From: a phage
Sequence record: PZ445530.1
Strand: one strand, 5' to 3'
DNA length: 64,000 nucleotides
Position numbers and translations under genes: made by a program. This document shows, piece by piece, positions 12,700 through 61,879 of the stretch. The notes beneath the pieces are model-generated. The model was given only the letters and a program-made list of their open reading frames with translations. It did no database searches and was not told the DNA's origin. Numbering within the stretch: the stretch's first letter is position 1; every line of letters starts with the position of its first letter.

Positions 12700-13260
12700 G
12701 GATTTCTAAAATGGATTTCCTCCTTTTGATATTTCACCGGGCTGGATATTTTAAAATTCTTAGAAAATCAGAAAATGGATCGAAAACTAAAATGGATTTT
12801 TCAGAGTAGGCGCGACAAGCTGAATAACTCATCCTATCGTTTGCACCATATTCCAGGCCACCATTATAGATTTTCCACACATGCTAACCTCCCTCTACTA
12901 GAACTTCCTCCACTTGCCCTTAACCTTCTATGGTAACAATCTAACCACTATCTTGAAGTTGCGGTGCAGCTTTCCAAGTACTCGATCTGTTTTTCATTTC
13001 ATGGCTTGGATTTTCTGAAAATTTTTCTCGATAAATTTCTCAGTACTCGATCTGTTTTTCGTTTTCTGAATCGGATTTTCTGGAAATCGTTCCGGATCTC
13101 GACCTGAAATTTTTGGGGACGAAATCGATTTTTCGTTTTCAGAAATGGATTTTTAAAATTTCTATATGGGAATATTTTATGGGATACTGTTTTATAGGAA
13201 ATTGTTACGGAGGGTAATTAGCATGCTAATTAAATTTATTAAATGCGAGGAGTTCTCATT
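12700..13260. repeat. Iteron-rich non-coding region (candidate origin/regulatory region)
   Basis: Repeated aaatggat(t) and ggattttctg motifs; direct repeat cagtactcgatctgtttttc x2; perfect palindrome taattagcatgctaatta at 13219-13236; no plausible ORF. Confidence 0.5.
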
Positions 13261-13269: not shown

Positions 13270-13286
13270 GAATGATAATCATTCTC
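13270..13286. promoter_or_regulatory. Fur-box-like palindrome (copy 1)
   Basis: gaatgataatcattctc, 15 of 17 match to GATAATGATAATCATTATC core. Confidence 0.35.
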
Positions 13287-13403: not shown

Positions 13404-13422
13404 GATAATGATAACCGTTCTC
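13404..13422. promoter_or_regulatory. Fur-box-like motif (copy 2)
   Basis: gataatgataaccgttctc, 16 of 19 match to Fur consensus; followed by GC-rich element similar to that after copy 1. Confidence 0.3.
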
Positions 13423-13693
13423 ATTTTATGCAGCGCCCATCCCCGGTGGTTGTCTTCCCCGTCACCGGTGCCTGCCGTCCTTTCGATAGGTATATTGTGC
13501 CACCTGGCGGGGCCGCTGTCAACACTTTTCAAAAAATTTTTCTAACCTGATGCGCTAACCGCTGCAACCTGGCGGGGCCAGCCTGGCAGGACCTAACTGA
13601 CCAGGTAGGAGAGAATGAAGGCTTGTAAACCTGGTGGGCCTATGCTATAGGACAGGTAACAATTGAAGAGGAGGTACAAAAATAAAAGGTAAT

Positions 13694-13852: not shown

Positions 13853-13940
13853 AATAATTGTTGACAACCGGGGGAGTCCTGCTATTCTTACCCTACAAGG
13901 TGAACAACACCGCACTAACTAGTAAAGAGGATAAAAAATC

Positions 13941-14138
13941 ATGAACGCATACGGAATCAAAGTACGTCGCAACACTCGCCAGGTGGTCACCGATCAAGTG
14001 GTTTGCCTGGTGGATGTAACCATCAACAACGGGCAAGGCCTTTATAAATTTCGTCGCGGTCATAGCTATACCCTGCAACAGCTTAATCGTTGCGCCCTGA
14101 CAAAAGGTCAGATCAATCACTGGTTTAATAAAAAATAA
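13941..14138 (+). CDS. hypothetical small protein
   Basis: SD aagagga; promoter-like ttgaca upstream. Confidence 0.5.
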   Translation: MNAYGIKVRRNTRQVVTDQVVCLVDVTINNGQGLYKFRRGHSYTLQQLNRCALTKGQINHWFNKK

Positions 14139-14142
14139 GTAT

Positions 14143-14170
14143 TGACATACGCCCCGACACAAAATATACT
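14143..14170 (+). promoter_or_regulatory. sigma70-type promoter
   Basis: ttgaca - 16 nt - tatact. Confidence 0.55.
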
Positions 14171-14202
14171 GAAATCACAAAAGACACTAAGAGGATAAAA
14201 TC

Positions 14203-14601
14203 ATGAAAACCACAACCTTTAATTTTGACAATGCCGACTTCTCTTTTTCTGATGTCAAGAACTGCCGCCGTGATCGTGGATTTTACAAGGCTTATAATCT
14301 GGTTGGCCTGGACGATGATAATAATTTGCACGAAGTAGCGGAGATCCGGTACTATGCCGCCGCCAGCGGTAACACTAACTACTGCGTTTTTTGGATACAC
14401 GACAACAAGAACAATAAGTACGGTTATACTGGCGGCAAGGCGAGCGGTCACGGTTATGATAAAGCTAACGCAGCACTTGAGAGCGCATTAAATGCTATGG
14501 GGATCACTGCCAACGGCTGGATCTACGAAGAAGAGTTTTTGTCGGCACTTGCTGACCACCTAGGCTATAAAAAGCACATTGTAACATGTGCCCACGAATA
14601 A
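14203..14601 (+). CDS. hypothetical protein
   Basis: SD aagagga; own promoter. Confidence 0.55.
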   Translation: MKTTTFNFDNADFSFSDVKNCRRDRGFYKAYNLVGLDDDNNLHEVAEIRYYAAASGNTNYCVFWIHDNKNNKYGYTGGKASGHGYDKANAALESALNAMGITANGWIYEEEFLSALADHLGYKKHIVTCAHE

Positions 14602-14608
14602 AAAATTA

Positions 14609-14636
14609 TTGACACGCTGCAAAATTCAAGTAAACT
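14609..14636 (+). promoter_or_regulatory. sigma70-type promoter
   Basis: ttgaca - 16 nt - taaact, followed by 5'-UTR hairpin ggcggg-gatgttt-cccgcc. Confidence 0.5.
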
Positions 14637-14684
14637 AGACACAAAAGGCGGGGATGTTTCCCGCCAGCACAAAGGAAAAAGATC

Positions 14685-15089
14685 ATGAATAAGAACGTAC
14701 GCCGCATCATGAACGAACTGGCAAACGATGAAAAAATTATTGACATGCATTTATTCAACATTTGCCGCCGTTGTGTAACATATAACAACCGCGCCGCAAA
14801 AGCGCGTGAGATGAACGCAAAAGGCACCTTAAAGCCATTCCAGGTGGTGGTAAAGGCCATTAAAGATGTAACTAATACGGCAAACCAGGTACAGGGGAAC
14901 ACCAACGAGAGTACCAATATTGATCCGGCTTACATCATGAAACGGATCCGGACCTGCAAGAACAAAGAGCAAGTGTATAATATCATAGACTGGTTGGATT
15001 CTATGGGCGATGTGGTTTACAATAGGTTTTCTGCAGCTATCGAGATCCAGCTTGACAGGTTGGACGGTAAAGTACTGAAAACTTACTAA
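14685..15089 (+). CDS. hypothetical protein
   Basis: SD aaaggaaa; own promoter and leader hairpin. Confidence 0.55.
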   Translation: MNKNVRRIMNELANDEKIIDMHLFNICRRCVTYNNRAAKAREMNAKGTLKPFQVVVKAIKDVTNTANQVQGNTNESTNIDPAYIMKRIRTCKNKEQVYNIIDWLDSMGDVVYNRFSAAIEIQLDRLDGKVLKTY

Positions 15090-15137
15090 GTTTATTTTTA
15101 GATGGCCTTGACTTCAGGGCCATCAATAAAGTAAACT
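15090..15137 (+). promoter_or_regulatory. Hairpin-embedded promoter/operator unit (copy 1)
   Basis: tttattttta + gatggcc-ttgacttcag-ggccatc palindrome containing ttgact, then taaact 18 nt downstream. Confidence 0.5.
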
Positions 15138-15170
15138 AATCTCAACTAAGCGAAAAAAGGGGGCTTTAAG

Positions 15171-15290
15171 ATGAGCACTACACGCCAATACACAAAGGTA
15201 ACTATTATCGTTTGCGTTGTCGGTTACATCCTGGCGCAAATGTTAATGAGTAGCGCTAACAGTTTTGCAAAATTTTTCTTAAATTTTTAA
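15171..15290 (+). CDS. Small hydrophobic peptide (39 aa)
   Basis: SD aaaagggggc before ATG; hydrophobic core VTIIVCVVGYILAQML. Confidence 0.35.
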   Translation: MSTTRQYTKVTIIVCVVGYILAQMLMSSANSFAKFFLNF

Positions 15291-15369
15291 TTGACAAACT
15301 AACTTAGATCGATATACTTAAACACGTAAACGGGAAAACTTCCCAGAGCACACAAAAGGAGAAAACACC

Positions 15370-15711
15370 ATGACTACTATGACCGCCGCAGAAAAAGCTA
15401 TGCAGATCGCCGCGCTGAAAAAACAGATCGCAGACCTTGAGAACAAGATCGACAACTTTGAAATCGACGAGGACAAGTACGACGAAAACTATGATGAATG
15501 GTTAGACGAGATCTACGGCGAAATTATGATCGGAAACATTTCTTTTCTTCCGTCGCGTATCCTCAAGGAGCTAGATCCTATCGCTTACCGCTGCGGATTT
15601 AGCGACTACATCGACAGCCTGGATATTGAGGAAGATGAAGAATACCAGGAACTACAGACAGAGTTAGAAGAAGCAAAAGAAGAGCTTGCGGAGCTGGAAG
15701 AAAACGAGTAA
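15370..15711 (+). CDS. hypothetical acidic protein
   Basis: SD aaaggag; upstream promoter ttgaca and leader hairpin. Confidence 0.55.
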   Translation: MTTMTAAEKAMQIAALKKQIADLENKIDNFEIDEDKYDENYDEWLDEIYGEIMIGNISFLPSRILKELDPIAYRCGFSDYIDSLDIEEDEEYQELQTELEEAKEELAELEENE

Positions 15712-15759
15712 GATTATTTTTAGATGGCCTTGACTCCAGGGCCATCAATAAAGTAAACT
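15712..15759 (+). promoter_or_regulatory. Hairpin-embedded promoter/operator unit (copy 2)
   Basis: Near-identical to copy 1: gatggcc-ttgactccag-ggccatc + aataaagtaaact. Confidence 0.5.
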
Positions 15760-15800
15760 TTATACTGTTAACACTGAACTAATTCAGAGGAGTTAAAACC

Positions 15801-16046
15801 ATGGCAGCACTAATCACCAAATATTATGCCCCTACCAACACCAAAAGCGCCCGTATCATGGTAAAAGGCTTCGGACGTAAAAAGGTTTACACCTGGGATT
15901 ATGCCTTAGACATGGAAGACAACTACACCAACGCGATGACCGATTTTATTAATGATCTGAACACGCGGATCTTGACAAATTATAAAATTACCGATATTGC
16001 CTATATAGGGGAAGGCGGGATCTGTTTTGTCGGTATCGTCAAATAA
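15801..16046 (+). CDS. hypothetical protein
   Basis: SD agaggag. Confidence 0.5.
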   Translation: MAALITKYYAPTNTKSARIMVKGFGRKKVYTWDYALDMEDNYTNAMTDFINDLNTRILTNYKITDIAYIGEGGICFVGIVK

Positions 16047-16095
16047 GCTGTTTTTTCGGTGGTCCTGGTAGCAGGGCCATCTATAAAGATAGTTT
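16047..16095 (+). promoter_or_regulatory. Variant hairpin-promoter unit
   Basis: ttttttcggtggtcctg-gtag-cagggccatc + tataaagat; diverged copy of the 15090 unit. Confidence 0.35.
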
Positions 16096-16121
16096 ATCAA
16101 CACAATGAAAGGAGAAAGTAC

Positions 16122-16469
16122 ATGATCAGCGGGGCAAGTTTTATTATTGGCGCTATTGCTACGGCTTTAATTGTAAACAAGATCCAATCTAAAAACGAAA
16201 AAGAGAGCAACGCGCTCACAGAATACCCATTTTGGGTATTCAACGACAATGAAGACTACATTATCAAGTACAAGAATGAGAAGGGCGACCAGGTAACACC
16301 GCGACCGATCCCGGCCTACAAGATGCAAGAAACACTATACCGCCTAAAGGCTGGAGGCGCAAAAATCGTAGACTTTTGGGGATATGATTGCAAGGATCAG
16401 GAGGTTATAAAACGGCGTATCCGGGCTATTCAGGCCAATATTGAAGTTAGCAAGGGGGGGAATATATGA
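16122..16469 (+). CDS. hypothetical protein with N-terminal membrane anchor
   Basis: SD aaaggag before ATG 16122; hydrophobic N-terminus. Confidence 0.5.
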   Translation: MISGASFIIGAIATALIVNKIQSKNEKESNALTEYPFWVFNDNEDYIIKYKNEKGDQVTPRPIPAYKMQETLYRLKAGGAKIVDFWGYDCKDQEVIKRRIRAIQANIEVSKGGNI

Positions 16470-16663
16470 AGATTAATTTTGAGAAGATTGTAAAGCGATC
16501 TCATGATTCCGAAGAGCTGCCGGAACGACGCCAACGTAACAATAAACTGAATAAGCCAAAAAGATTTGGAAAGATCTGGCGAAATCATTATGATCGTAAA
16601 TTGCCTGGCCTACTTTTGGAACGTGAACGACAGGCAGAACGATACCGCCATAAAGACAAATAA
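16466..16663 (+). CDS. Small basic protein
   Basis: SD aagggggg; Arg/Lys-rich. Confidence 0.5.
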   Translation: MKINFEKIVKRSHDSEELPERRQRNNKLNKPKRFGKIWRNHYDRKLPGLLLERERQAERYRHKDK

Positions 16664-16671
16664 CAACCAAC

Positions 16672-16701
16672 GCCCCCGCCATTGTGCGGGGCTTTTTATT
16701 T
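16672..16701 (+). terminator. Intrinsic terminator
   Basis: ccccgc-cattgt-gcgggg hairpin followed by ctttttattt. Confidence 0.6.
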
Positions 16702-16822
16702 CTATCCTACGAATAGCGCCCCTGGTTGGCCCTGTAAGCGCCAAAAAGGCCCCACCTATGCAATCGCCCCCTTTAACCTGAAAACATCGCCCAGGGCCGT
16801 TTCATGGCGTTAAAAATATCAT

Positions 16823-16850
16823 TGACATCGTCAACAGGTTAGCTATACTA
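16823..16850 (+). promoter_or_regulatory. sigma70-type promoter
   Basis: ttgaca - 16 nt - tatact. Confidence 0.55.
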
Positions 16851-16881
16851 ACCACATCAAAGAGAGAAAGGAGTAAACGCC

Positions 16882-17142
16882 ATGCGTAAATTAAAAAATT
16901 TTGATAAAGTTGATGTTGTCCTGAATAATTTTTACTACTGCAACAACAAGGCCATTTGGTGGCGTGATAGTTCCACCGATAAAGTCAAGGCGCGCTTTCT
17001 CCAGGGGCACTGGCAAGGCCGCCCAGTGATTAAAATCATGGGGCAATTGGTAGCGTTTAAAAATTGCCGCCGTGTTGATGACGTTGAGGAGATTTTAAAC
17101 ATTTTGCGCCACAATAATTTAAAAAATAGTGTTGACAAGTAA
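16882..17142 (+). CDS. hypothetical protein
   Basis: SD aaaggag. Confidence 0.5.
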   Translation: MRKLKNFDKVDVVLNNFYYCNNKAIWWRDSSTDKVKARFLQGHWQGRPVIKIMGQLVAFKNCRRVDDVEEILNILRHNNLKNSVDK

Positions 17143-17216
17143 ATCTCAATAAGTATAATTAAACACACAGGCGGGAAAACTTACCGCCACTAACAAAGAA
17201 AACAGGAGAAAATATC

Positions 17217-17297
17217 ATGACCACCGTTAACATTACCACAGGTTACAATTTATCTTTCGACGTGCTGACCGATGAACAAAAAAGAAAAAGCTATTGA
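17217..17297 (+). CDS. Short leader ORF (26 aa) at the canonical cassette start, out of frame with the downstream long ORF
   Basis: Promoter ttgaca..tataat, leader hairpin ggcgg-gaaaactta-ccgcc and SD caggag all point to ATG 17217; frame ends at TGA 17295-17297 after an A6 run. Confidence 0.3.
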   Translation: MTTVNITTGYNLSFDVLTDEQKRKSY

Positions 17298-17841
17298 AAT
17301 GGTCCGCGAAAGAGAAGAACACAGCGGGGATAACTTTTTTGCAGAAAGTGTAATTGAAGACTACAAAGAACATATCTTTCCAGAGTATGGCCTTGAAGAT
17401 ACCAAGGTACATTGGTCCGGCTTTTGGTGCCAGGGCGACGGCGCGTCAATCAGTGCGGAAAACGTGGATTTAGAAAAATTCTTGCGTAAAGTCAAGTCTC
17501 TGACTAAATTCCGCTCAATTCGTCACTTGTTCGGCACAATGCACGATGGCGAGCTATCCGCAAGTGTTGAGCGTGATCCATATAGCCGCTATAGTCACGA
17601 AAACACTGTAAGCGGGTACATCGATACTACATGGCTAGACCTGACAGCCAAGCAAGAAAGTAAGGTTGAAGAGCTGGAAGAGTTGATCACCGAGAACGTA
17701 CGGGAACTATCCCGCAAGGTTTACGTAGACCTGGAGCAAGCTTATCTTGAACAATTTACTACCGAAAACCTGATCGGCCTTATCGAGGCCAATGATTGGC
17801 GGTTTGATGTGGATGAATATGGAGAGATGAGTTTTTCATAA
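17272..17841 (+). CDS. hypothetical protein (start uncertain: 17272, 17299 via TGAAATG coupling, or 17217 if the A6 run is an indel)
   Basis: Long ORF; no SD of its own at 17272. Confidence 0.45.
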   Translation: MNKKEKAIEMVREREEHSGDNFFAESVIEDYKEHIFPEYGLEDTKVHWSGFWCQGDGASISAENVDLEKFLRKVKSLTKFRSIRHLFGTMHDGELSASVERDPYSRYSHENTVSGYIDTTWLDLTAKQESKVEELEELITENVRELSRKVYVDLEQAYLEQFTTENLIGLIEANDWRFDVDEYGEMSFS

Positions 17842-17931
17842 ATAAAGTGTTGCAATAATCTAAAAACCTGCTATATTAAAACTCAAGGGGCAAGACGTTT
17901 GCCCCCCACACAAAACAAAGAGGAAAACATC

Positions 17932-18312
17932 ATGAAAAACACTACTAAAGCTATTGACACCGTCATGTTTAACCTGGTTACCTTTCGCGAGGATATGAAA
18001 GATCTTCCACGTGAAACAGTGTGCGATCACATTGAAAACTATCGCAAACTAATCAAAGAGTTGCCTTTAAAACGTGATCAGTATGCGGCTAACGCCATGC
18101 TTAATGCCATGATCAAAAAGATGATCCAGTGTGATTTAACTCTGGCCTATGACTATGCGGGTGGTCGTTTTGCAGTATACAATCAGCCCGTGCCCGGTAT
18201 GGGCACCACCGAAGAATTGCACGCGTTAAATCTGAAGCAAGATGTATGGGATAACATGCCCCGCGTGGTGGTGTGGGCAGAAAGCGGAAAGATTTACGGC
18301 GATAATTTTTAA
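17932..18312 (+). CDS. hypothetical protein
   Basis: SD aagagga; leader hairpin ggggcaa-gacg-tttgcccc. Confidence 0.55.
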   Translation: MKNTTKAIDTVMFNLVTFREDMKDLPRETVCDHIENYRKLIKELPLKRDQYAANAMLNAMIKKMIQCDLTLAYDYAGGRFAVYNQPVPGMGTTEELHALNLKQDVWDNMPRVVVWAESGKIYGDNF

Positions 18313-18376
18313 TCAGGTAACAGGCGGCATATTTGCCGCCTTATTGTTAAACAGAGCTGCAAAAGAGGTACATAGA

Positions 18377-18748
18377 ATGGAATTTATTATTTTGGCTGTA
18401 GTAGTTGCCTTGTTCAACGCCTGGATAGCTGGCAAAATAGGTAGATCCGCTTTTCTATGGTTTGTTATATCTATTTTCCTGGGAGTGGTTGCAACCATTG
18501 TACTAGTTATCCTTGCAATTGTTGACAAGGATAATAATAAGAAGGGTAAAGTATTTTCCGACCTGTATGACGCCCAAACTTTTGTTAACGCCTATTATAG
18601 TGATCTTCCGGTCTCCTTGCGCTGCAGCCTGGCGCAACAAGTTTTTGATGAGGCTAAAACCAGAGATCAAGCCCATGAGATATGTTTAACTGAGGCGGAT
18701 CGCCTATTTGAGAGGAATAGAAAATATGTGGGCCAGCCGTTTAAATAA
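18377..18748 (+). CDS. Membrane protein (two predicted TM segments)
   Basis: SD aaagagg before ATG 18377; hydrophobic stretches. Confidence 0.5.
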   Translation: MEFIILAVVVALFNAWIAGKIGRSAFLWFVISIFLGVVATIVLVILAIVDKDNNKKGKVFSDLYDAQTFVNAYYSDLPVSLRCSLAQQVFDEAKTRDQAHEICLTEADRLFERNRKYVGQPFK

Positions 18749-18971
18749 TACCACGTTAATTAATCCCTTTAGTGAAGATTTGAAGCCAGCCGCCTGGCGT
18801 GATGGATTCAATAACGAACGCTTTATTTTCAAGCCTGATCTTGAGGAATTTTATAACAATGGATCGAACAACAGCGGAGATAATTTTTCTTGGGATGTGC
18901 GTGGTGATGGTACTCCTGGGGGCCATTGTAAACCACGTCACTACTACCAGGAGGAAAGGGGGAGACGATGA
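18726..18971 (+). CDS. hypothetical protein
   Basis: ORF; weak SD. Confidence 0.4.
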   Translation: MWASRLNNTTLINPFSEDLKPAAWRDGFNNERFIFKPDLEEFYNNGSNNSGDNFSWDVRGDGTPGGHCKPRHYYQEERGRR

Positions 18972-19087
18972 CAACCAAGGATAAGCCCCGTACCGATAAG
19001 GCGCGCCGGGTTATGGTATGGCTTGAGATCATCGCCCTTGAAATATTGCTAGGCGTAGGGATGTACTTTATCGCTGTAAGTAACTAA
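18968..19087 (+). CDS. Small membrane peptide (39 aa)
   Basis: SD aggagg; hydrophobic WLEIIALEILLGVGMYFIAV. Confidence 0.3.
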   Translation: MTTKDKPRTDKARRVMVWLEIIALEILLGVGMYFIAVSN

Positions 19088-19091
19088 GAAC

Positions 19092-19120
19092 GGCCCCCGA
19101 TCATGGGGGCCTATCTTTTT
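19092..19120 (+). terminator. Intrinsic terminator
   Basis: ggccccc-gatcat-gggggcc hairpin followed by tatcttttt. Confidence 0.6.
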
Positions 19121-19229
19121 AAAAAATTTCCCTTTCAGGGTGTTGCAATCCGGTCCGCAATATGGATAATAACAATCAACGGGGAAACATCCCCGCCACA
19201 CAAACAAAAGCCCGAAGAGGAGAAAGAAG

Positions 19230-19429
19230 ATGAGCAACAATATCCGCGTTATTAACTTCAAAAAGAAGAAAAAATTGCCGTGCTGATTGACGGTCAAGAA
19301 ATCTTCAAGGGCGACTATGAAGATCATCAAACGGCGATTAGTATCACTCGCGTGATTGGTTATCATAATTTCTACCCCCAAGGCGCTGAGGCAGCAGTTA
19401 AACGAATCAAAGAGATTGTAGGCCTGTAA
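19230..19429 (+). CDS. Small protein gene interrupted at an A6 run (frameshift or indel)
   Basis: Canonical start 19230 reads 18 codons to TGA; the remaining 52 codons continue in the -1 frame from the A6 run at 19269-19274. Confidence 0.35.
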
Positions 19430-19430
19430 A

Positions 19431-19478
19431 ATTTATTTTTAGATGGCCTTGACTTCAGGGCCATCGATAAAGTAAATT
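19431..19478 (+). promoter_or_regulatory. Hairpin-embedded promoter/operator unit (copy 3)
   Basis: tttattttta + gatggcc-ttgacttcag-ggccatc + gataaagtaaatt. Confidence 0.5.
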
Positions 19479-19522
19479 TAAACCCTGTTAAAATACCACG
19501 CAGTTAACAAGGAGTGATAGAC

Positions 19523-19822
19523 ATGTTTATCCAGGCTAATAATCTTTATTTCTTTGATGGTCAGATCGTAGATGGTGTGGAAGTGGAGATCACCGGGTGC
19601 CCTGGTGGTCAGGCTATGACTTTCCGGAATAATGCCTTTGATGATTCTCATATCGTTATGAGAATGGAAGTTACGAAGCTGGACGACAAGAAAACACTTA
19701 TTGACTATTCTGTGAAAGATCATCCAGACTACCACATGATCTATGGTGATTTGTGCATTGTTGACCGTGACAAGGTGGGCGGCATTGTGATCGCTATTGT
19801 GAACGATGTTTTCTCAAACTAA
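19523..19822 (+). CDS. hypothetical protein
   Basis: SD aaggag before ATG 19523. Confidence 0.5.
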   Translation: MFIQANNLYFFDGQIVDGVEVEITGCPGGQAMTFRNNAFDDSHIVMRMEVTKLDDKKTLIDYSVKDHPDYHMIYGDLCIVDRDKVGGIVIAIVNDVFSN

Positions 19823-19839
19823 TTTCAGCAGGTGATTTT

Positions 19840-20190
19840 ATGAAAGTAAAACTATATTACCTTAATGAGCTTAACCCCCTTGCCCAGGTCCGCGCCCTGG
19901 CTAATACCTTGATTTGTGAGAAATCTGTATATTGTGTTGAGCTTAACGCCATGCGTGAACGTCTCAAAGGTGGTTACTTTGACATCCATGCTGCAATCAA
20001 CGGCCTGAATATGGAATTTATCCGCTTACGTAACAACAGCCGGAATCTGGCAAGAATGGAACAAGATCCGGCCCACCTTCGTAAGCTGGTTATTGAAAAT
20101 CATCTGATGTTCAATGCCGAGGGTGATTATTACCATTTTCACCGCAAACGTTGGTACCGTGGCGGCAATACAAGCAAGAATGCAAAATAA
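19840..20190 (+). CDS. hypothetical protein
   Basis: ORF. Confidence 0.5.
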   Translation: MKVKLYYLNELNPLAQVRALANTLICEKSVYCVELNAMRERLKGGYFDIHAAINGLNMEFIRLRNNSRNLARMEQDPAHLRKLVIENHLMFNAEGDYYHFHRKRWYRGGNTSKNAK

Positions 20191-20225
20191 GGCCCCTAGC
20201 AGGGCCTGCAGCGATATAATCACAT

Positions 20226-20260
20226 AAAGGCTATGCGGTTGCATGGCCTTTATTATTTTA
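20226..20260 (+). terminator. Terminator-like hairpin
   Basis: aaggctatgc / gcatggcctt stem followed by tattatttta. Confidence 0.4.
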
Positions 20261-20392
20261 GCGTTACAGCGACCCCTAAGGCGCTTAAAAAATTTTTTAA
20301 AGAAGTACTTGCATCAAGCCCTACAGTATGGATAATAGGACGTGTCGGGGGGCGGCCCCCAATCATTAACCGGATAGATAGGAGTTAAAACC

Positions 20393-20677
20393 ATGGCTAT
20401 TGTTACCGCTGGCGATGTAGTAGAAATGGAAGCAAAATACTTAAAAGCGGGTATGCATATCCTACGCAACGATCTTGAACTGGTCCTGACAATGGTTGAC
20501 TATAACCCAGGGCAAGATTATCCAAGTGTTGACTACTTTTTTGAGTATGTTGATGAAGAATTAAAAGAGGATGAGGCTTATCAGGGCGAATTCTGTAATT
20601 TCTTTTGCTCTGATGAGGTTGTAAAAGTTATCTATCAACCTGGCGTACCTTTCCCGCTGCACGCTATCAATAAATAA
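20393..20677 (+). CDS. hypothetical acidic protein
   Basis: SD ataggag; upstream TG-extended -10 (tggataat). Confidence 0.5.
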   Translation: MAIVTAGDVVEMEAKYLKAGMHILRNDLELVLTMVDYNPGQDYPSVDYFFEYVDEELKEDEAYQGEFCNFFCSDEVVKVIYQPGVPFPLHAINK

Positions 20678-20733
20678 ACCTGGCGGGGCCGAAAAGGCCC
20701 CCCAATTATGAAAATAAAGAGAGGCAAATCATC

Positions 20734-20967
20734 ATGATGGAACAAATTAAACGCGCCGAGGCTATTAATGGCAACGTGATCTATTTTGTCAGCAAAAACG
20801 AAAAAGGCGTACCCTATGCGGCTGTAATAGTACAGCCTGACGGCGATTATTGGTGCACTGTGTACGGCGCTTATTCTTTTGGGCGTCCAGTGCATGATAA
20901 AATTTTGAAAGTAGCGAACCCTACCGGGAAAAATATTACAGCAGAAAAATTTTTTGAAAAGTGTTGA
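20734..20967 (+). CDS. hypothetical protein
   Basis: SD aagagagg. Confidence 0.5.
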   Translation: MMEQIKRAEAINGNVIYFVSKNEKGVPYAAVIVQPDGDYWCTVYGAYSFGRPVHDKILKVANPTGKNITAEKFFEKC

Positions 20968-21045
20968 CATGACCTTATAAGACTGTAGAATATAAATCAA
21001 AGGGGGGCAACAAGCCCCCCACCAACCACAAAGAGGATAAAAATC

Positions 21046-21225
21046 ATGGCTATTATTGCAAAGACTGAGATCGTAGGCTTAGATTCTATTCTCCTCGCAT
21101 ATGAGGAAGCTATAGAAATGTATGTGGTTTCCTATGGTGAGTATATTCGTGAATATAAATCTATTGATCTGGCTTTTGAATGTTATATTCGCCAGGTAAA
21201 TAAAGCATATGATGATTATCGTTAA
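21046..21225 (+). CDS. hypothetical small protein (59 aa)
   Basis: Full cassette: ttgaca..tagaat promoter, gggggg-caacaag-cccccc hairpin, CA-rich leader, SD aagagga. Confidence 0.4.
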   Translation: MAIIAKTEIVGLDSILLAYEEAIEMYVVSYGEYIREYKSIDLAFECYIRQVNKAYDDYR

Positions 21226-21310
21226 AATAGTTTGACAACAATTACAAATCGGGTAGAATGTATTTCGTAGGGCGGCAATGATGCCGCTCACAACTAAAAG
21301 AGAGATCATC

Positions 21311-21505
21311 ATGGCGCTTAAAAAACTAACAAGCAATACTCGTTGGGATGAAATCGACGGGGAAGTTTACATTTTTGCCCGTAAACCAGGGGATCAAAAA
21401 TGGTCAAAGGCTTTTACTTGCCATCCTGCAACAATAGATCTGATAAAAAGTCAAGGACTACGTGAAGCAGTAGCAAGAAGTTTACTGATCCCTTGTAAAA
21501 ATTAG
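21311..21505 (+). CDS. hypothetical small protein
   Basis: Promoter ttgaca..tagaat, hairpin gcggca-atga-tgccgc, SD aagagag. Confidence 0.45.
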   Translation: MALKKLTSNTRWDEIDGEVYIFARKPGDQKWSKAFTCHPATIDLIKSQGLREAVARSLLIPCKN

Positions 21506-21582
21506 TTTGACAACAGTCAACAATCTGGTAAAGTGTACTACATAGCGCGGGAATACTTCCCGCCATTAATGAGGGTAATTTA

Positions 21583-21720
21583 ATGAAAACTTTCAACGCA
21601 ACAGCCTCGACAATTGGTTATATTATTACAGTACAAGCCGTGGATCTGGTAGCAGCAGCAAACAAGATTAAAAAGATGATTCCGCCAGGTAGTGAATTTT
21701 CCGTTTGGGAAGTAAAATAA
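21583..21720 (+). CDS. hypothetical small protein (45 aa)
   Basis: Promoter ttgaca; hairpin gcgggaa-tac-ttcccgc; leader cattaatgagggta shared with next gene. Confidence 0.35.
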   Translation: MKTFNATASTIGYIITVQAVDLVAAANKIKKMIPPGSEFSVWEVK

Positions 21721-21803
21721 ATCTTGACAATAATTTATTACTTGATAGACTGTATTTCGTAGTGCGGGGAAATAAGGCAACGCCCATTAATGAGGGTAGA
21801 ATC

Positions 21804-21908
21804 ATGTTAGAGAAAATTTTCACGGTTGTAGTAGTTGGCCTGGCATTATCGGTTGGATGGGTTGCAACTATGGCTAACATGATCCTATCTTCCCACGGTA
21901 TCGGTTAA
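21804..21908 (+). CDS. Small hydrophobic peptide (34 aa)
   Basis: Leader cattaatgagggtagaatc; hydrophobic VVVVGLALSVGWVATMANMIL. Confidence 0.3.
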   Translation: MLEKIFTVVVVGLALSVGWVATMANMILSSHGIG

Positions 21909-21909
21909 G

Positions 21910-22134
21910 GTGAATCAAATGATCACGAATAAAACAGGTAAAACGGAATTCTTGCGCGGCTTGCAGGTCGGCAAGCCTGAGATCTGGCATTGCACTAAAA
22001 CACCACGTGACGAAATGAAAGACTTCACCGCCACGCTGCAACGGGTAAAGATATCCATTACGCAGAAAAAAGCCTTGATAGTGGTGGAAGGTGAGATCCC
22101 TCAAGCCGTTGTTATAGTTGAGCGTACAGCATAG
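21910..22134 (+). CDS. hypothetical protein
   Basis: ORF immediately after previous stop. Confidence 0.45.
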   Translation: MNQMITNKTGKTEFLRGLQVGKPEIWHCTKTPRDEMKDFTATLQRVKISITQKKALIVVEGEIPQAVVIVERTA

Positions 22135-22225
22135 TTTAATTTATACCGATACCCGAAAATTAACCAACAAAGCATAAACAGGCGGTTGCCGCCGCCTTAA
22201 ACGTAGCAGAAAGAGGATAGATACA

Positions 22226-22459
22226 ATGAAAAAGATGATCGCAGTAGTTGCCCTGGTTCTGGAAGAAGAAATTAAAGCCATGCACCATAGCAACAGATTT
22301 ATTGGTGACGCGCAGGATAATATGAAAGTATGCCGCCATAAAGTTAATGAAGTGCTTAAAGAGTACGGCTATAAAGATCTTATGATCAAACGTGAGGAAA
22401 AATTCCGCTACCGTAACGACCTGGCAAATCGGATTTTTGAAATATACGAATCATTATAA
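22226..22459 (+). CDS. hypothetical protein
   Basis: Leader hairpin aggcgg-ttgccg-ccgcct, SD aagagga. Confidence 0.5.
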   Translation: MKKMIAVVALVLEEEIKAMHHSNRFIGDAQDNMKVCRHKVNEVLKEYGYKDLMIKREEKFRYRNDLANRIFEIYESL

Positions 22460-22478
22460 TTTTTTAACTGAATTATCA

Positions 22479-22504
22479 AGGGGCTTAGGCCCCTTTCTTT
22501 TTGT
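22479..22504 (+). terminator. Intrinsic terminator closing the plus-strand early block
   Basis: aggggc-ttag-gcccct hairpin followed by ttctttttgt. Confidence 0.6.
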
Positions 22505-24935
22505 CTGCTCTTCTCCTACCATAAACGGCCCTACCTGGCAAGTGGAATAATTGACTAGCCATCAATCCCACATACTGTACAAATATACATGGAAAATAAC
22601 TATTGCATAATTTTTCATTGTGTGGTAGCAAGTCCATTTTTACCCGTTTTCTCTCCCAAAAGTGCACGTAATGCCGCTATTGCACAAATTTTAACCTGAT
22701 GCACATCTCCAATATCTTGTCAACAACTAAAAATCTTTATAAGTCATACACTTACACAGCATCGAAAGCGTGTTCTACGCGAAAAATCGAGTATAACTAT
22801 AGCCGCCAGATCTCAGAATTCACGTACGCACGCCATTCTATAGCCTGCAAAGTATTTATTCCAACCACAGAATAACGGAATAGTCAATACCTGCATAAAA
22901 TAATTATTCGTGCAAACTGCATAACATAAATCAGCTCAGGTGTCAACATTTTTCGTAAACAGTCCGAAATTATAACGATGAGTTATCATAAACAGAGAAA
23001 TCTTTAGTCGTCTAATGTTTACTGTACATTACTATACTGACTGGAATCATTAGATGACTAAGAGAAAGATAAGAAATAATTAATAATGTAATTATTTTAC
23101 CTGTAACAATAAGGCAACTATGCAAACGAATGGCATGGCGCGACGGAGTCGCGACATAATATAAAAGCAGTAACCATCACCCCCGTGATAGTTTGTCTGC
23201 AAACTATTAATCAGATCATAGTTGCCTTGTATTTAGTTAATCATGACATAACAAGCAAGGCAACTATAGATCTGCTAATAGTTGCCCTGCTTTTATATTA
23301 TGTCATGCTAATTATAATCAGTGCGATTATTGTCATGTATAATTATTGTCATGCAAACGAATGGCATGGCTGATTATCGGTGTGTAAACAGTCAATCATG
23401 TAAATGGTTAGCATGTGAACAATCAGGAATGTAAACAATCCAGTGTGTAAACTAATAGGTGTGTAAAAGTGTCATGTTGTGTCAGTTAGGTCACATTATG
23501 TCAGACAAGTTTTTCTCCTCTTTGTCAAGTGCTGCATGAAAAATTTACAAACTGGTATGGTAGCATTTTTGCGGCCCTGTTTACATTCAGTAATGTATGT
23601 ATAATCCTTGTTGTGTGGGCGTTTAGACGTCTAGACGGTTGGAAGTCCACAGGTCAATATCTAATCTATCGGCTGCTAACTATATCCCACACAAATAGCA
23701 AGAAATATGATTGTTATATGCGTAAACTGTAACTCATGTTATCAATCCCTGTATGGATCGCCAGTGGTGCGCATAATGGGTATTATGTTAAATTGCCCGT
23801 AATGATAACTATTCTCACAATGATAGGTATTCTCATTCATCCACATAAAATAGGTTGCAAATGTTGTGCCACTGTGTGAACGGCCTGGCCTATTAATTTG
23901 CCTCACTGCCTTGATATTTGAGAATTGTTATAAGAATGAGAAGTATTCCCATTTCGTCCGCCTGGCAGCACTCCTGTAGGTCAGGTCAAAATCGTGGTAG
24001 AATTGGGCCTGTTCAGATATTTCTGGCTGACTCTTCAGGTCTGTGTGGGAAAAGCCAACCTCTCCGGCGGGGCAGGGGGTCATGACGGGAAAATTGCAGG
24101 TCAATTAAAAATTTACGTGGTGTATGAAGCGCTCTTCAGGTAAGGCATGTATTATGGGATGAAACCCGCTTCAGGCAATGATATTTGTGGGTGTGATATT
24201 TGCTGGAAAGCCAGATATGACGGGACTCCCGGCGGGGATGGGGTAGTACAGACAGGGAAAATATGAGAATGTAGTTGGGGAAATTGATCAGACAGGTAGA
24301 GTATGGAATATGTTACAAGTATGTTAAATATGGAGGTTGAATATCTGTAGGATTTGTGTGTAAAATCAAAGACTTAAGGGGTGTTGTGGTATTTTCTATA
24401 AATAATTCAAGTTTAATAGGCAATATTTGTCTCTATCCGTTTTGTGTGGTAAACAGATTCAGATTAGATTGGTTTACAAGTGTATACATAATATACAAAT
24501 TAAAGATACAAGAAACCCCCCTCCCCCCTTCGGCTACCATTCACCTTTTCCTCTGACTGGTACTTAAACACTTATTCAGACTCTTCAGGTTATCACCCAT
24601 ATATCATATGGCAGTGACTGGTGTCCTCCGGCCCCTCTTTCGTCACCCGTCCGCTTCGCCATGCTAATGCCATAGCCAATGGTTCGGTTGTTCACCCTGT
24701 TCACTCAGGTGTATCTCCATACCCCTTCAAACCGAAGAGAACAGAAAACCCGAATTACTCGGTAAAAGAAAAGAGAAGAACTTAATTTTATCAGGATAGG
24801 CAAGAATGTCAAGGCATGACTGCTCACTAAACAAGCAAACAGTCATGTGTGGAAGGTAAGTGATTGTGGTGGTGGGAAATTTAGTTGAAAGATGTGTTAT
24901 AGGTGCTTCCAGCACTTTAGCCGGGCAGCTAATTG
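22505..24935. repeat. Repeat-rich non-coding region at the convergence of plus and minus transcription
   Basis: No convincing ORF; inverted repeats ggcaactat/atagttgcc; tgcaaacgaatggcatggc x2; tgtaaaca-type iterons 23380-23470; CTCTTCAGG x4; duplicated tccggcggggcagggg unit. Confidence 0.5.
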
Positions 24936-24939: not shown

Positions 24940-25155
24940 TCAGTCCAGCGGTTCATCCTCTACTTCACTGAAATCAATGTTCATGGTCTCTTCCCAACCA
25001 TCGATCTCAGCACAAGAGTGGAGTTCTTTAGGGTTTACTCCCAAAGCCTCAGCAACAGAGTCTATATTTAACACCTCTGGCAGGTATGATTCATCGAATT
25101 CAAGGTAAATCAGGCCACGAGTGTTGTCAGCTCCACCAAATATTTCTATCTTCAT
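24940..25155 (-). CDS. Small acidic protein (MKIEI family)
   Basis: N-terminus MKIEIFGG, acidic C-terminus; SD ggagatt upstream. Confidence 0.45.
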   Translation of the reverse strand: MKIEIFGGADNTRGLIYLEFDESYLPEVLNIDSVAEALGVNPKELHSCAEIDGWEETMNIDFSEVEDEPLD

Positions 25156-25276
25156 GAAATCTCCTCTGGAAATGAGAGTGTGAACAGGGTTTTATACGTT
25201 CCGATGCACAGGAATTATGCACGTTTGCCTCTTCAGGCCATGCTTTAGCATGAGGAACCTGTGTGGGCTCGGTGCT

Positions 25277-25489
25277 TCATAGTCTACCACCCCTGAACTC
25301 TTCGTGCTCAGGCATAATAGAGAACCAGATATCTACGATGTCTTCCCACGTTAGGTCATCAGCCTCAGGATCTACCTGGAGCGAAGATGGAGAATCTTCA
25401 GAATCTAAGTTTTCCTCTTTCACTGGCTCAGCCAAGGGACATATAGTCACTCCTTTGGATGTCTCTTCAGATGCATGTGTGTTTATCAT
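25277..25489 (-). CDS. Small acidic protein
   Basis: ORF; ATG overlaps upstream TGA. Confidence 0.45.
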   Translation of the reverse strand: MINTHASEETSKGVTICPLAEPVKEENLDSEDSPSSLQVDPEADDLTWEDIVDIWFSIMPEHEEFRGGRL

Positions 25490-25575
25490 GTTCCACCCGT
25501 GAGTATTCCGGCAACAGCCGCTATGGACGTAATGATCATCAGGATCACCACTAAAACTTCGGACAATGTTCTCAT
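25486..25575 (-). CDS. Small membrane peptide (29 aa)
   Basis: SD ggag 7 nt upstream; hydrophobic VLVVILMIITSIAAVAGIL; stop overlaps next start (ATGA). Confidence 0.3.
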   Translation of the reverse strand: MRTLSEVLVVILMIITSIAAVAGILTGGT

Positions 25576-25849
25576 TGTGTACTCCATATTCTACAAACTA
25601 TGTGTGGATACTATCACTGGATCGGTAATGTGTCAACAGAAACGCCGCGAGGGTTTGGTTAAAATCCGAGCGTATGGTGATTTGGGTCAAAACGGACGTG
25701 CGTTCTCGCTACGCTCGAAATACGGAGTTGTTTGTAGGGAGCTCTTAAACGCTCTGTAATGAGATTAACTGCCCAAGGTATGCAATCGTGCACCAGATAA
25801 AGAAAAGGACGCCACAGAGCGTCCTAGGTGTCTTAAATTTGATATTTTG

Positions 25850-26161
25850 CTATACCCACGAGGGCTTATCAAGGTTGGAGTAGCTGAAAGGTGTCAAAAG
25901 GTGACTGTCAAAATCTCTCAAACTATCCAAATCTTTTTCCTCGTCCTGACACCATCTGTGCCTACATTTGTTGTTGTAGTGCATGGAATGCATAGCGTTC
26001 TGCAACTTAACAGGCACAAGTGATTCAGGAGTAGATAGTATTGTTGGGTATGCCAGAACCACCTCAAACAGTGGAAACACATCGAAACTAAAGTCTACCT
26101 CTGCAGAGGTTGATGGCATGTAGGAGTATTTAGCCGCCTTTGTAGACATAATCCACCTCAC
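25850..26161 (-). CDS. hypothetical protein
   Basis: ORF. Confidence 0.45.
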   Translation of the reverse strand: MRWIMSTKAAKYSYMPSTSAEVDFSFDVFPLFEVVLAYPTILSTPESLVPVKLQNAMHSMHYNNKCRHRWCQDEEKDLDSLRDFDSHLLTPFSYSNLDKPSWV

Positions 26162-26490
26162 ACAGGTTTGATAATACCTTCACCGAATAGCTCTTCGTAT
26201 CTAATCTTGTCCGGATCCCACTCCTGGATAATTTCGAAGACAATATCCAACCCAGGAACAATCACTTCTCCAGTGTCAAGCTTAGCAAGAACAAAACCGG
26301 AAGGTTGAATGGTTTCCCAGTTACGGCGATCAGAATAAAATACTTCGAAAATATCACCAACCTCAATCCGTTTCTGTTGCTCAAGATGCTCAAGGTTCTC
26401 TTTCATACGGATGCAGCGTATTTTTCGTGCAGGCCATAGACCACCTGCATCACGTTCATTCAATTCTTTTACAGTGATCGGTATACCCAT
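26158..26490 (-). CDS. hypothetical protein
   Basis: ORF; SD gaaggag upstream. Confidence 0.5.
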   Translation of the reverse strand: MGIPITVKELNERDAGGLWPARKIRCIRMKENLEHLEQQKRIEVGDIFEVFYSDRRNWETIQPSGFVLAKLDTGEVIVPGLDIVFEIIQEWDPDKIRYEELFGEGIIKPV

Positions 26491-26545
26491 CTCAAATCTC
26501 CTTCATAGATAGTAAAAAGAGGGGCCCAAGCCCCTCTTTTTGTCA

Positions 26546-26851
26546 TTATTCTACAGAGCGTTTGAACAGAATGTCTGCCTCGGACATGTGCTCAACCTCT
26601 TCTTCGATTTTAGCTCGACGTTTTTCAGCCTCATAGCGAATATCGAACTCGGTAGCCACCAGAGATTTGATGAATTTAGGAGAATACAGGTGATCCTGCT
26701 TCTCAACGAGAATGATATCCTTAATGGCATCTTTCAGATCTTTAATCTGAAGTTGGAGTTCCACCAGTTCTTCGATTGTCTTGCGAAGGCGATCACGCTC
26801 TGCAGTGTCAGAAGGAAGAGAGGTGAACAGTTCAACTTTAGATTTAGCCAT
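26546..26851 (-). CDS. hypothetical protein
   Basis: ORF; SD aaggag upstream. Confidence 0.5.
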   Translation of the reverse strand: MAKSKVELFTSLPSDTAERDRLRKTIEELVELQLQIKDLKDAIKDIILVEKQDHLYSPKFIKSLVATEFDIRYEAEKRRAKIEEEVEHMSEADILFKRSVE

Positions 26852-26879
26852 AGTAAGAGTCTCCTTATGTTGTTTTAAA

Positions 26880-27131
26880 TTAACGTTCTACAAAAATACC
26901 GTTCAGTTCAATAACCAGGAATTTCTGGTCTTCACTGTCGTCTCGTGCCAGCACCTCACAGACGTATCGGTCATCTCCATCATCATCGCAGTCAAATACA
27001 AGACTGAGGACTTTATCATGATAAACCTTCGCCACTACCGCCTCGTAAGTATTGCCGATTGTGAATCCAAGATAATCTCCGATGCATTTGACAACAACAT
27101 GGTCGCCAGCATTCAAGTCAATCTTCGTCAT
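26880..27131 (-). CDS. hypothetical protein
   Basis: Start moved to MTKIDL with SD aaggag 8 nt upstream. Confidence 0.45.
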   Translation of the reverse strand: MTKIDLNAGDHVVVKCIGDYLGFTIGNTYEAVVAKVYHDKVLSLVFDCDDDGDDRYVCEVLARDDSEDQKFLVIELNGIFVER

Positions 27132-27286
27132 TACTGCGCTCCTTGGGTAATAATACTGTATGTAAAACTTTAACCAGAGATGTGAATAACGCCCCAAAAC
27201 ACACCGATAGCGCTAAAACAGACAAGGCCATCATTAAAGCTTCAGTAAAATCAGTCACTCCTCACCTCTTGTTAGTCACTATACTG

Positions 27287-29673: not shown

Positions 29674-29677
29674 ATTA

Positions 29678-61871: not shown

Positions 61872-61879
61872 CCTTTTTT

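Follow-up and report, generated by a model that had tools for sequence, protein, structure and literature searches.

Promoter cassettes with a predicted 5' stem-loop in the small-gene block of an rV5-like phage

The promoter-early stem-loop (PeSL) cassettes of the T4-type phages phi1, RB49, PST and nt-1 are composite repeats in hyperplastic regions of these genomes, in which a sigma-70 early promoter is combined with an A/T tract and with a polyG/polyC stem-loop. They mediate indels and, when neighbouring motifs recombine, form mini-circles, and their stem-loop has been shown to terminate transcription (Arbiol et al. 2010, PMC2839356; Comeau et al. 2014, PMC4122927). PeSLs are the closest known kind to the elements described here, which lie in a block of 25 small genes on the plus strand of a 64,000-nucleotide stretch of sequence record PZ445530.1, referred to below as the window, from the genome of a Vequintavirus (rV5-like) Escherichia coli phage. 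Ten of the genes are preceded by what we call an H-cassette, a near-consensus promoter followed by a hairpin and an A/C-rich leader. These cassettes are best filed as a variant of the PeSL kind of mobile promoter/stem-loop cassette, in which the stem-loop has been relocated to the predicted 5' end of the mRNA. On balance, though not by a wide measure, we judge it probable that the block is a hyperplastic early-gene region built from portable expression cassettes, which combine an mRNA-stabilising or insulating 5' hairpin with recombination homology.

A complete cassette measures approximately 85-95 nt. It opens with an A/T-rich tract and a near-consensus sigma-70 promoter (TTGACA, 16-nt spacer, TAnnnT), followed by a start region of pyrimidine-purine type and then by the G-rich/C-rich stem-loop. 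Next come a spacer that is A/C-rich and unpaired, a strong Shine-Dalgarno (SD) sequence and, lastly, a small orphan gene with its ATG. The 16-nt spacer is present in all ten H-cassettes, and the stem starts 9-13 nt (mode 10) past the -10 hexamer. Seven of the hairpins are strong, and those of the cassettes at 15291, 20309 and 21724 are weak or degenerate (Table 1). A first-pass annotation, made from the letters of the window without database searches, had described the whole block as built from a repeated cassette and had quoted examples of its parts, all of which we found in place: the promoters TTGACA-17-TATACT at 14142, TTGACA-16-TATACT at 16822 and TTGACA-16-TAGAAT at 20964, the hairpins at 14647-14665, 17170-17188 and 21002-21020, and a leader, cattaatgagggta, that is common to two adjacent genes (21563-21577 and 21784-21798). 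The repetition is real and non-random, but the full cassette precedes 10 of the 25 genes, not all of them. A promoter-like site lies directly upstream of 17 of the 25 genes, in three classes (ten H-cassettes, three plain promoters and four P-cassettes), the latter two classes lacking the hairpin downstream of -10; at 12 promoter sites in the block, 10-12 of the 12 consensus positions match. The remaining eight genes have no promoter of their own and are either translationally coupled or located behind a promoter-less hairpin or a terminator.

To compare these hairpins with chance, we counted hairpins of at least 5 bp with at least four G-C pairs starting in a given 6-nt window, for which the background probability in this sequence is 0.008. 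Seven of approximately 16 intergenic promoters have such a hairpin 9-13 nt past -10, where about 0.1 would be expected, and among 146 promoter-like sites elsewhere in the 64 kb (both strands) at most three do. Folding of the predicted leaders gave z scores between -2.4 and -3.7 for seven of them and -2.0 for an eighth, with three others weak, indistinguishable from shuffles or decayed. In the strong cases the hairpin is the sole structure in the leader and the SD is unpaired, and the stability of the cassette hairpins ranges from -10 to -17 kcal/mol. The leaders are 73-81% A+C versus a background of 52% (p about 1e-15), and the 20 nt upstream of -35 are 78% A+T versus 58% (p about 2e-14). The converging block of small genes on the minus strand, at 25000-37700, also has near-consensus promoters and short A/C-rich leaders; its spacers are 17-18 nt long and it has no hairpins, and hence the 16-nt spacer and the hairpin travel together.

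Much of this module has a counterpart in the PeSLs. Both are repeated intergenic motifs with a sigma-70 consensus promoter (17 sites here, repeat families D1, D2 and D5) and an A/T-rich tract upstream of -35, and in both a small orphan gene with its SD accompanies a stable polyG...polyC stem-loop. Both lie in hyperplastic, orphan-rich locations (here a Pfam family, T7 gp1.1, PF08200, was found in one of 20 block products tested), and indel or replacement junctions between close relatives fall within the motifs (both junctions in seven of ten events, see below). The four P-cassettes are copies of a 51-nt repeat, D1 (three at 92-96% identity, the fourth at 69%), in which the -35 hexamer TTGACT sits in the loop of the palindrome GATGGCC(N10)GGCCATC, so that the palindrome spans -35; these match the PeSL subclass whose stem-loop overlaps -35. 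The two kinds differ in lineage, which is Vequintavirinae and Stephanstirmvirinae here and Straboviridae for PeSLs, and in geometry. In PeSLs the stem-loop may lie between the -35 and -10 hexamers, overlap either of them, occupy the A/T tract further upstream or follow -10 closely, and it is usually inside the promoter. The same scan applied to the hyperplastic region of RB49 returned 14 promoters: the stem-loop fills the -35/-10 spacer in six, overlaps -10 in two and lies downstream of -10 in two, and none was found at the remaining four. All ten H-cassette hairpins, in contrast, lie at +11 to +30 past -10 and so correspond only to the rare downstream subclass of PeSL, and because of this position the stem-loop would always be part of the cassette's own transcript. 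The rV5 genome paper and its Table S4 do not mention hairpins, the promoters there being cut 7 nt past -10 and the terminators being canonical ones only. Literature on phAPEC8-like phages and searches with motif strings likewise turned up no description of a transcribed-hairpin cassette.

A second difference from PeSLs, whose stem-loops terminate, is that the cassette hairpins have no U-tract, and this bears on the suggestion that they are terminators or attenuators of transcription from the upstream gene whose place in the downstream transcript is incidental. The stem-loop of the RB49 ORF210/211 PeSL cut lacZ expression as strongly as rrnB T1 (PMC2839356). The GenBank records of phages EdH4 and ASO2A annotate the hairpins as terminators, the labels of EdH4 covering those of the 14609 and 20964 cassettes. 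The hairpins also share with rho-independent terminators a G+C-rich stem of 5-10 bp and a short loop, and a genuine terminator of the block, at 18322, belongs to the same stem family, GGCGGCA...TGCCGCC. However, E. coli RNA polymerase needs a U-tract for termination, and the 8 nt past 76 promoter-proximal hairpins contain on average 1.4 T and 4.1 A, whereas the five canonical terminators of the block have 5-6 T in 8 nt. Since the terminators of the block have T-rich tails, including the one at 18322 with the cassette type of stem, the phage does have U-tracts at its sites of termination. Termination would also leave the tight 9-13 nt spacing to -10 unexplained, and a terminator placed behind a promoter but ahead of the SD of the gene served would attenuate the cassette's own transcript. 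We therefore consider a terminator function improbable. Several terminators were also predicted on the minus strand, but termination of antisense transcription was rejected as well, as the T-rich stretch occurs in only some of the copies in the window, and the conserved cassettes of relatives have TATGTGATAC instead. Labels reading 'rho-independent terminator' between a promoter and its start codon are found in ASO2A (locus L003, 1316-1342 and 1790-1830) and in EdH4 (locus L025, 2255-2273 and 8606-8620); these are hairpins of the 5' untranslated region and probably mislabelled.

Divergence from the window was measured across 3-10 Vequintavirus orthologues per cassette. It was 0% (0/318) in the -35 hexamer, 2.5% in both the SD and the start codon, 4.5% in the stretch between -10 and the stem and 6.6% in the -10 hexamer. 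Higher values were seen in the 5' arm of the hairpin (7%), the promoter spacer (9%), the leader (13%), the hairpin loop (16%) and the 3' arm (16%, a figure inflated by C-run gaps). With the -35 hexamer and the SD unchanged or nearly so among orthologues, this comparison shows the cassette promoters and ribosome sites to be under strong, functional-looking constraint. The footprint, with its contrast between these sites and the spacer or loops, supports the view of the first-pass annotation that the genes are independently expressed from strong promoters of their own, apart from the eight that have none.

A loop-anchored tally of the pairs in 40 unique promoter-proximal hairpins gave 287 Watson-Crick, 8 G.U and 6 other pairs (Watson-Crick share 287/301), with several pair types at stem ranks 2, 5 and 6. 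There are 30 different stems, of 5-10 bp, and 25 loop sequences, of 3-6 nt, among these 40 hairpins. Because pairing survives by way of compensatory substitutions and paired indels (see cassettes 17850 and 20964 in Table 1), the stem-loop is shown, as far as such comparisons reach, to be selected for pairing, and by the same evidence the hairpin is constrained as a structure and not as a sequence. Its distance from -10 is likewise shown by comparison to be under selection. An alignment of 49 mixed hairpins with MAFFT and RNAalifold yielded no consensus structure; unequal arms fall out of register, which makes the mixed set unusable for covariation. Sense and antisense folding energies, compared in order to decide the strand, showed no consistent difference.

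The pair tally also speaks to the idea that the inverted repeat is a double-stranded DNA operator, centred near +13 in the manner of the lac operator, at which a dimeric repressor would switch the early promoters off. The palindrome is directly downstream of the start site and in fixed register, its central bases vary as they do in operator spacers, and the D1 palindrome spans -35, which is a classic operator position. Half-sites, however, are not conserved, and the compensatory changes keep complementarity rather than sequence. The spacing of the arms varies with the length of loops and stems, more widely than is compatible with a dimer that reads a specific sequence. In at least 11 copies, moreover, the symmetry of the DNA is lost at a conserved G.T pair (GGGCGG.../...CCGCTC). 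Of the explanations weighed here, an operator is the one to which we give the least credence.

It had escaped the first-pass annotation that this type of cassette occurs in four phage genera and has an analogue in the PeSLs of the T4-type phages. Approximately 14-20 copies occur within 12 kb of ESCO13, a Phapecoctavirus of another subfamily (Stephanstirmvirinae), with the layout TTGACA-16-TAAnnT, gtatcaCATA, hairpin, short A/C-rich leader, SD and small open reading frame (ORF), and with two main types of hairpin, GGGCGGCA-ATGG-TGCCGCTC and GGGCGGGAA-nnn-TTCCCGCTC. Another Phapecoctavirus, phiWec186, has 16 copies, the phi92-like Justusliebigvirus VEcB approximately 11-13, and Certrevirus PBES 02 (Vequintavirinae) 4-6, beside many hairpin-less promoters with extremely A/C-rich leaders. 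A 75-nt query taken from the 21232 cassette matched 176 phage records, in up to seven places per genome, and near-identical copies of this cassette were found in Phapecoctavirus and Justusliebigvirus. In 43 cassettes from the four genera the stem starts 6-16 nt past -10, with a mode of 10 and with 36 of the 43 at 9-12 nt; the composition of the arms is G207/A73/C61/T0 on the 5' side and C193/T85/G60/A3 on the 3' side. A scan of IMG/VR for a promoter plus CRTAGGGCGG gave 15 loci with one match each and was uninformative. The stretch 20731-22461 of the window is 82-87% identical to DNA of Phapecoctavirus (ESCO13, P3322, ESCO9), and this similarity to another subfamily suggests that cassette-flanked genes have been exchanged between subfamilies.

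The spread of related hairpins over four genera has to be considered together with the proposal of the first-pass annotation that the cassettes share a post-transcriptional control element. In this proposal a dedicated trans-acting factor of the phage or the host, which might be a translational repressor, an endoribonuclease or an antiterminator, would bind the hairpin RNA and so co-regulate all cassette genes, for example in the shut-off of early genes. A core, (C)ATAGGGCGG(C/G)A..., is common to Vequintavirus, Phapecoctavirus, Justusliebigvirus and Certrevirus, the placement is fixed, and polarity is strict, with a purine-rich 5' arm that has no T in 341 positions. On the other hand, the loops are hypervariable even among orthologues, the stems include the unrelated GGGGGGC, GGGGCAA and CGGGGA, and the copies at 15291 and 21724 have decayed although gene and promoter were kept. 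A search of Rfam 15 at the gathering threshold found no match in the block, the only matches in the window being tRNAs and a group I intron outside it, and paralogy and gene conversion (families D2, D5 and D17) could explain the sequence similarity. One regulator acting on one motif is thus unsupported, given that stem sequences, stem lengths and loops vary freely and that the hairpin also resembles a generic 5'-terminal stem-loop. A specific trans-acting regulator is not supported for the cassette hairpins, and we regard a dedicated RNA-binding factor as unlikely. An arrangement like lambda nut/boxB was rejected, as the loops are not conserved purine pentaloops; nor was a boxA-like element seen in the sequences read, though no boxA search was made. 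It is more speculative still that the CATA-GGGCGG... hairpin is the site of a dedicated factor encoded by Vequintavirinae and Stephanstirmvirinae, which might be either an RNA-binding switch that times or protects the cassette mRNAs or a recombination protein that binds DNA hairpins. The latter, if true, would mean an integron-like exchange system of self-expressing gene cassettes across two subfamilies.

Ten distinct indels or replacements were found when the window was compared with nine relatives. Although no more than about 15% of the block consists of cassettes, both junctions were within cassettes in seven of the ten events, one junction was in one event, and neither in two. Gene 21583-21720 is absent from A51.2 and Mangalyan, which are joined in the 15-nt leader cattaatgagggta, its upstream copy being the left junction and its downstream copy the right. 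Typing phage 14 lacks two genes, with a join of approximately 21 nt that runs from -10 through the start region into the first part of the stem. Three events involve YP-6, which lacks gene 17217-17841 (join at -35, agtgTTG), lacks gene 21046-21225 together with a swap to a Phapecoctavirus-type cassette, and has gene 21583-21720 replaced with the join in the stems. In Mangalyan an extra cassette and gene are inserted between -35 and the stem, and EdH4 lacks gene 21311-21505, the event lying within the 56-nt D2 repeat. The junctions are located at -35, in the initial transcribed sequence, in the hairpin or in the leader, and the homologies range from 7 nt to the 56-nt cassette. These alignments show the repeated cassettes to be homology patches where relatives delete, insert and swap single genes, and this role as recombination joints for gene gain and loss had been missed in the first-pass annotation.

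One of the two events without cassette junctions is a deletion of approximately 2.0-2.1 kb at 22240-22258 that is specific to the window; most relatives examined carry extra DNA there. Its junction is a 15-19 nt coding-sequence repeat (atgaaaaagatgatcgcagtagttgcc...) between paralogous N-terminal coding sequences, and gene 22226-22459 is a fusion of the N-terminus of one gene and the C-terminus of a paralogue. What looked like a breakpoint at 17034 relative to typing phage 14 proved to be a run of N in that record and was not counted as an event.

In bounding small genes with hairpin-forming imperfect inverted repeats at which genes turn over, the cassettes recall the attC sites of integrons. 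They differ in that there is no integrase and the cassettes carry their own promoters. The junctions, moreover, are spread over the whole cassette, which points to general homologous recombination instead of a site-specific crossover point. A related possibility is that the hairpin has no role in expression and is kept and spread only as part of a recombination linker, or as a hitch-hiker with duplicated promoters. The cassettes do form paralogous repeat families, the junctions of gene indels do lie in them, seven block promoters do without the hairpin, and some copies decay. Neutrality, however, would not preserve pairing through paired indels and substitutions, and it would not confine the stem start to 9-12 nt past -10 in 36 of 43 cassettes of four genera; we consider such a passive origin improbable.

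If the cassettes are portable expression units with a protective 5' hairpin, as we prefer to read them, host RNA polymerase would fire each of them independently and soon after infection. We infer the early timing from the sigma-70 consensus only, and a literature search for transcription-start or transcript data on Vequintavirinae found none. Transcription would start 6-8 nt past -10, in the CACATA or CAAA start region, and the RNA would begin approximately 2-5 (rarely 6) nt before the stem and carry a 5'-terminal stem-loop. Decay that begins at the 5' end, through RppH and RNase E, would be hindered by such a structure. With the G-rich 5' end sequestered in the stem, the leader and the SD would also stay single-stranded whichever gene follows, and an SD that is exposed for any attached gene would suit a module that is shuffled between genes. 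On read-through RNA from an upstream gene, the same hairpin could serve as a barrier to 3' exonucleases.

In E. coli, an mRNA with a base-paired 5' end is protected from RNase E (reviewed in PMC3997798, citing Emory 1992 and Bouvet & Belasco 1992). With the 5'-terminal stabilisers of ompA (hp1) and papA the cassettes share a short, stable, sequence-unspecific hairpin, which here is predicted to lie close to the 5' end, and behind it a leader free of structure and a strong ribosome-binding site. They differ in that the element is multi-copy and travels with its promoter, and in that the 3-5 unpaired nt predicted before the stem are as many as protection would allow. The leader of T7 gene 10 has a 5' stem-loop of this mRNA-stabilising sort. 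Work on T5 N25 reportedly points to a preference of strong promoters for purine-rich initial transcribed sequences, which the purine content of the 5' arm may further reflect. The rV5 protein gp11 is probably homologous to T4 Srd (PMC3606486), which stimulates RNase E on host mRNA (PMC4980113); together these would provide a rationale for shielding the phage's own early mRNAs.

Several points weigh against this reading. The position of the hairpin at the very 5' end is a prediction from promoter geometry. The limit for protection by a 5' hairpin is about 2-4 unpaired nt, and with 3-5 nt before the stem, protection from RppH and RNase E would be borderline. The hairpin is carried by only 10 of the 17 block promoters and is weak or decayed in three copies, and it is therefore dispensable for expression. 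Nor are the stems sequence-free: GGCGG or GGGCGG cores recur across the four genera and T is never found in the 5' arm (0/341 positions), which points to extra constraint or to recent common descent. An excess of G.U over A.C pairs would indicate selection on RNA rather than DNA, but the excess seen in the unique hairpins (8 G.U versus 4 A.C) comes mostly from one inherited position. Lastly, viable indels are expected between genes anyway, and selection for viable genomes would enrich intergenic junctions; the enrichment is convincing mainly because the junctions occupy homologous positions of two different cassettes.

The block is located at the downstream end of a long array of plus-strand genes and is followed by approximately 2.5 kb without convincing genes and then by converging small genes on the minus strand. 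Its features are collected in Table 1; the start codons of the 25-gene model were checked against the reading frames.

Table 1. Features of the small-gene block, in positions of the window. H-cassettes start at the first base of the -35 hexamer; z refers to folding of the predicted leader.
Feature	Position	Strand	Elements	Gene served	Remarks
Small-gene block	13861..22495	+	25 genes, 34-207 codons		autonomous mini-operons, hyperplastic
Plain promoter	13861..13943	+	TTGACA-16-TATTCT; A/C-rich leader; no hairpin	13941-14138
Plain promoter	14142..14205	+	TTGACA-17-TATACT; A/C-rich leader; no hairpin	14203-14601
H-cassette	14609..14687	+	TTGACA-16-TAAACT; hairpin 14647-14665, GGCGGGGA-TGT-TTCCCGCC; leader agcacaaa; SD; ATG 14685	14685-15089	fold -14.1 kcal/mol, z -2.6
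P-cassette	15087..15173	+	stop codon; T-run; palindrome GATGGCC(TTGACTTCAG)GGCCATC; -10 TAAACT	15171-15290
H-cassette, weak hairpin	15291..15372	+	TTGACA-16-TATACT; hairpin 15332-15344, GGGAA-AAC-TTCCC	15370-15711	z -1.0; hairpin unchanged across 10 orthologues; paralogue of 17132, 70% over 54 nt (family D5)
P-cassette, copy 2	15709..15803	+		15801-16046	96% to copy 1
P-cassette, degenerate copy	16044..16124	+		16122-16469	69%
Canonical intrinsic terminator	16674..16691	+	hairpin, then CTTTTTAT		6 T in next 8 nt
Plain promoter	16822..16884	+	TTGACA-16-TATACT; short leader; no hairpin	16882-17142
H-cassette	17132..17219	+	TTGACA-16-TATAAT (12/12); hairpin 17170-17188	17217-17841	z -3.7; C-to-A mismatch in window stem; orthologues have constant stem GGCGGGAA/TTCCCGCC with loop AAC, GTT or CAC
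H-cassette	17850..17934	+	TTGCAA-16-TATATT; hairpin 17887-17905, GGGGCAA-GACGT-TTGCCCC	17932-18312	z -2.4; orthologues GGGGCGAG-ATGA-CTTGCCCC, a compensated change
Intrinsic terminator	18322..18341	+	AGGCGGCA-TATT-TGCCGCCT, then TATTGTTA		cassette-type stem family, T-rich tail
Intrinsic terminator	19092..19111	+
H-cassette	19143..19232	+	TTGCAA-16-GATAAT; hairpin 19180-19195, CGGGGA-AACA-TCCCCG	19230-19429	z -3.3; orthologues GGGGAG-ACA-CTCCCC
P-cassette, copy 4	19428..19525	+		19523-19822	92%
Intrinsic terminator	20224..20253	+
H-cassette	20309..20395	+	TTGCAT-16-GATAAT; hairpin ~20348-20360, GGGGG-CGG-CCCCC	20393-20677	z +0.3, indistinguishable from shuffles owing to composition
Promoter-less intergenic hairpin	20685..20701	+	GGGGCC-GAAAA-GGCCCC	5' of 20734-20967	no promoter match, no T-run
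H-cassette	20964..21048	+	TTGACA-16-TAGAAT; hairpin 21002-21020, GGGGGGC-AACAA-GCCCCCC	21046-21225	z -3.6; A51.2 has GGGGC...GCCCC, both arms differing by 2 nt (paired indel)
H-cassette, pan-genus type	21232..21313	+	TTGACA-16-TAGAAT; gtatttcgta; hairpin 21270-21289, GGGCGGCA-ATGA-TGCCGCTC	21311-21505	one G.U pair in hairpin; z -3.2; family D2
H-cassette	21507..21585	+	TTGACA-16-TAAAGT; hairpin 21547-21563, GCGGGAA-TAC-TTCCCGC; leader cattaatgagggta 21563-21577	21583-21720	z -2.0; family D2
H-cassette, decayed hairpin	21724..21806	+	TTGACA-16-TAGACT; hairpin 21762-21785; leader cattaatgagggta 21784-21798	21804-21908	z +0.2; family D2; relatives retain GGGCGGGGCAAT(A/G)..GCAACGCCC
Promoter-less hairpin	22180..22197	+	AGGCGG-TTGCCG-CCGCCT	5' of 22226-22459	relatives keep stem, loop differs
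Intrinsic terminator closing the block	22478..22495	+

The sequence 13890-22510 matches 255 phage records, with Escherichia phage A51.2, an rV5-like Vequintavirus, as the best match (96.6% identity). Both there and in eight further relatives the genes under the match are labelled as hypothetical or as (putative) membrane proteins, apart from single labels of 'holin' and 'DNA translocase' in some records, and the gene content of the block varies among nine related Vequintavirus loci. Matches at approximately 93-95% identity include 23 records named 'Campylobacter phage' (for example C12, C5 and C7), whose host labels look doubtful. Within the block, homopolymer differences of one base (+/-1) in the window break ORFs that are intact in all 8-9 relatives. 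Gene 17217-17841 has A6 where the relatives have A5 (17278; +1 A), gene 19230-19429 has A5 where they have A6 (19260; -1 A), and gene 16122-16469 has an additional G in its terminal G-run (16454). These differences are either sequencing errors or genuine pseudogenes.

The gene-poor stretches that flank the small-gene block contain all three copies of a Fur-box-like motif, AATGATAAYNRTTCTC, at 13271-13286, 13404-13422 and 23801-23835 (chance expectation 0.03). The copy at 13404-13422, GATAATGATAACCGTTCTC, matches 16 of the 19 positions of the E. coli Fur box consensus, and the one at 23801 is followed by a tandem second copy. Two sets of direct repeats with a spacing of 65 nt (12968-13153 and 13498-13579) lie in the gene-poor stretch upstream of the block. 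D3/D4 has three copies of approximately 47-62 nt at 74-79% identity, and CCTGGCGGGGCC is present three times, at 13503, 13568 and 20679; the array may be origin-like or regulatory. In phage isim, the short features annotated as 'repeat_region' do not represent terminal repeats. Elsewhere in the window, ARAGORN identified a 99-nt tRNA-like gene with a four-base anticodon (atcc) at 61775-61873, inside the tRNA cluster, which reached only 35.5 bits as a tRNA in Rfam. The group I catalytic intron (RF00028, 84 bits) is at 63639-63917, just past this cluster.

Phages of the rV5-like, phAPEC8-like and phi92-like kinds are common in therapy and biocontrol collections, and the genes of this block are the least understood that they have. 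Recombining, self-contained cassettes of promoter, 5' hairpin and ribosome-binding site would explain the turnover of accessory early genes, including turnover across subfamilies, and the cassettes would be compact natural promoter/5'-untranslated-region parts for use in E. coli. A phage with a probable homologue of Srd, an activator of RNase E, may shield its own early mRNAs by means of 5' stem-loops. The PeSL concept is extended by these cassettes beyond the T4-type phages, and the altered geometry of the cassette implies a different role for the stem-loop.

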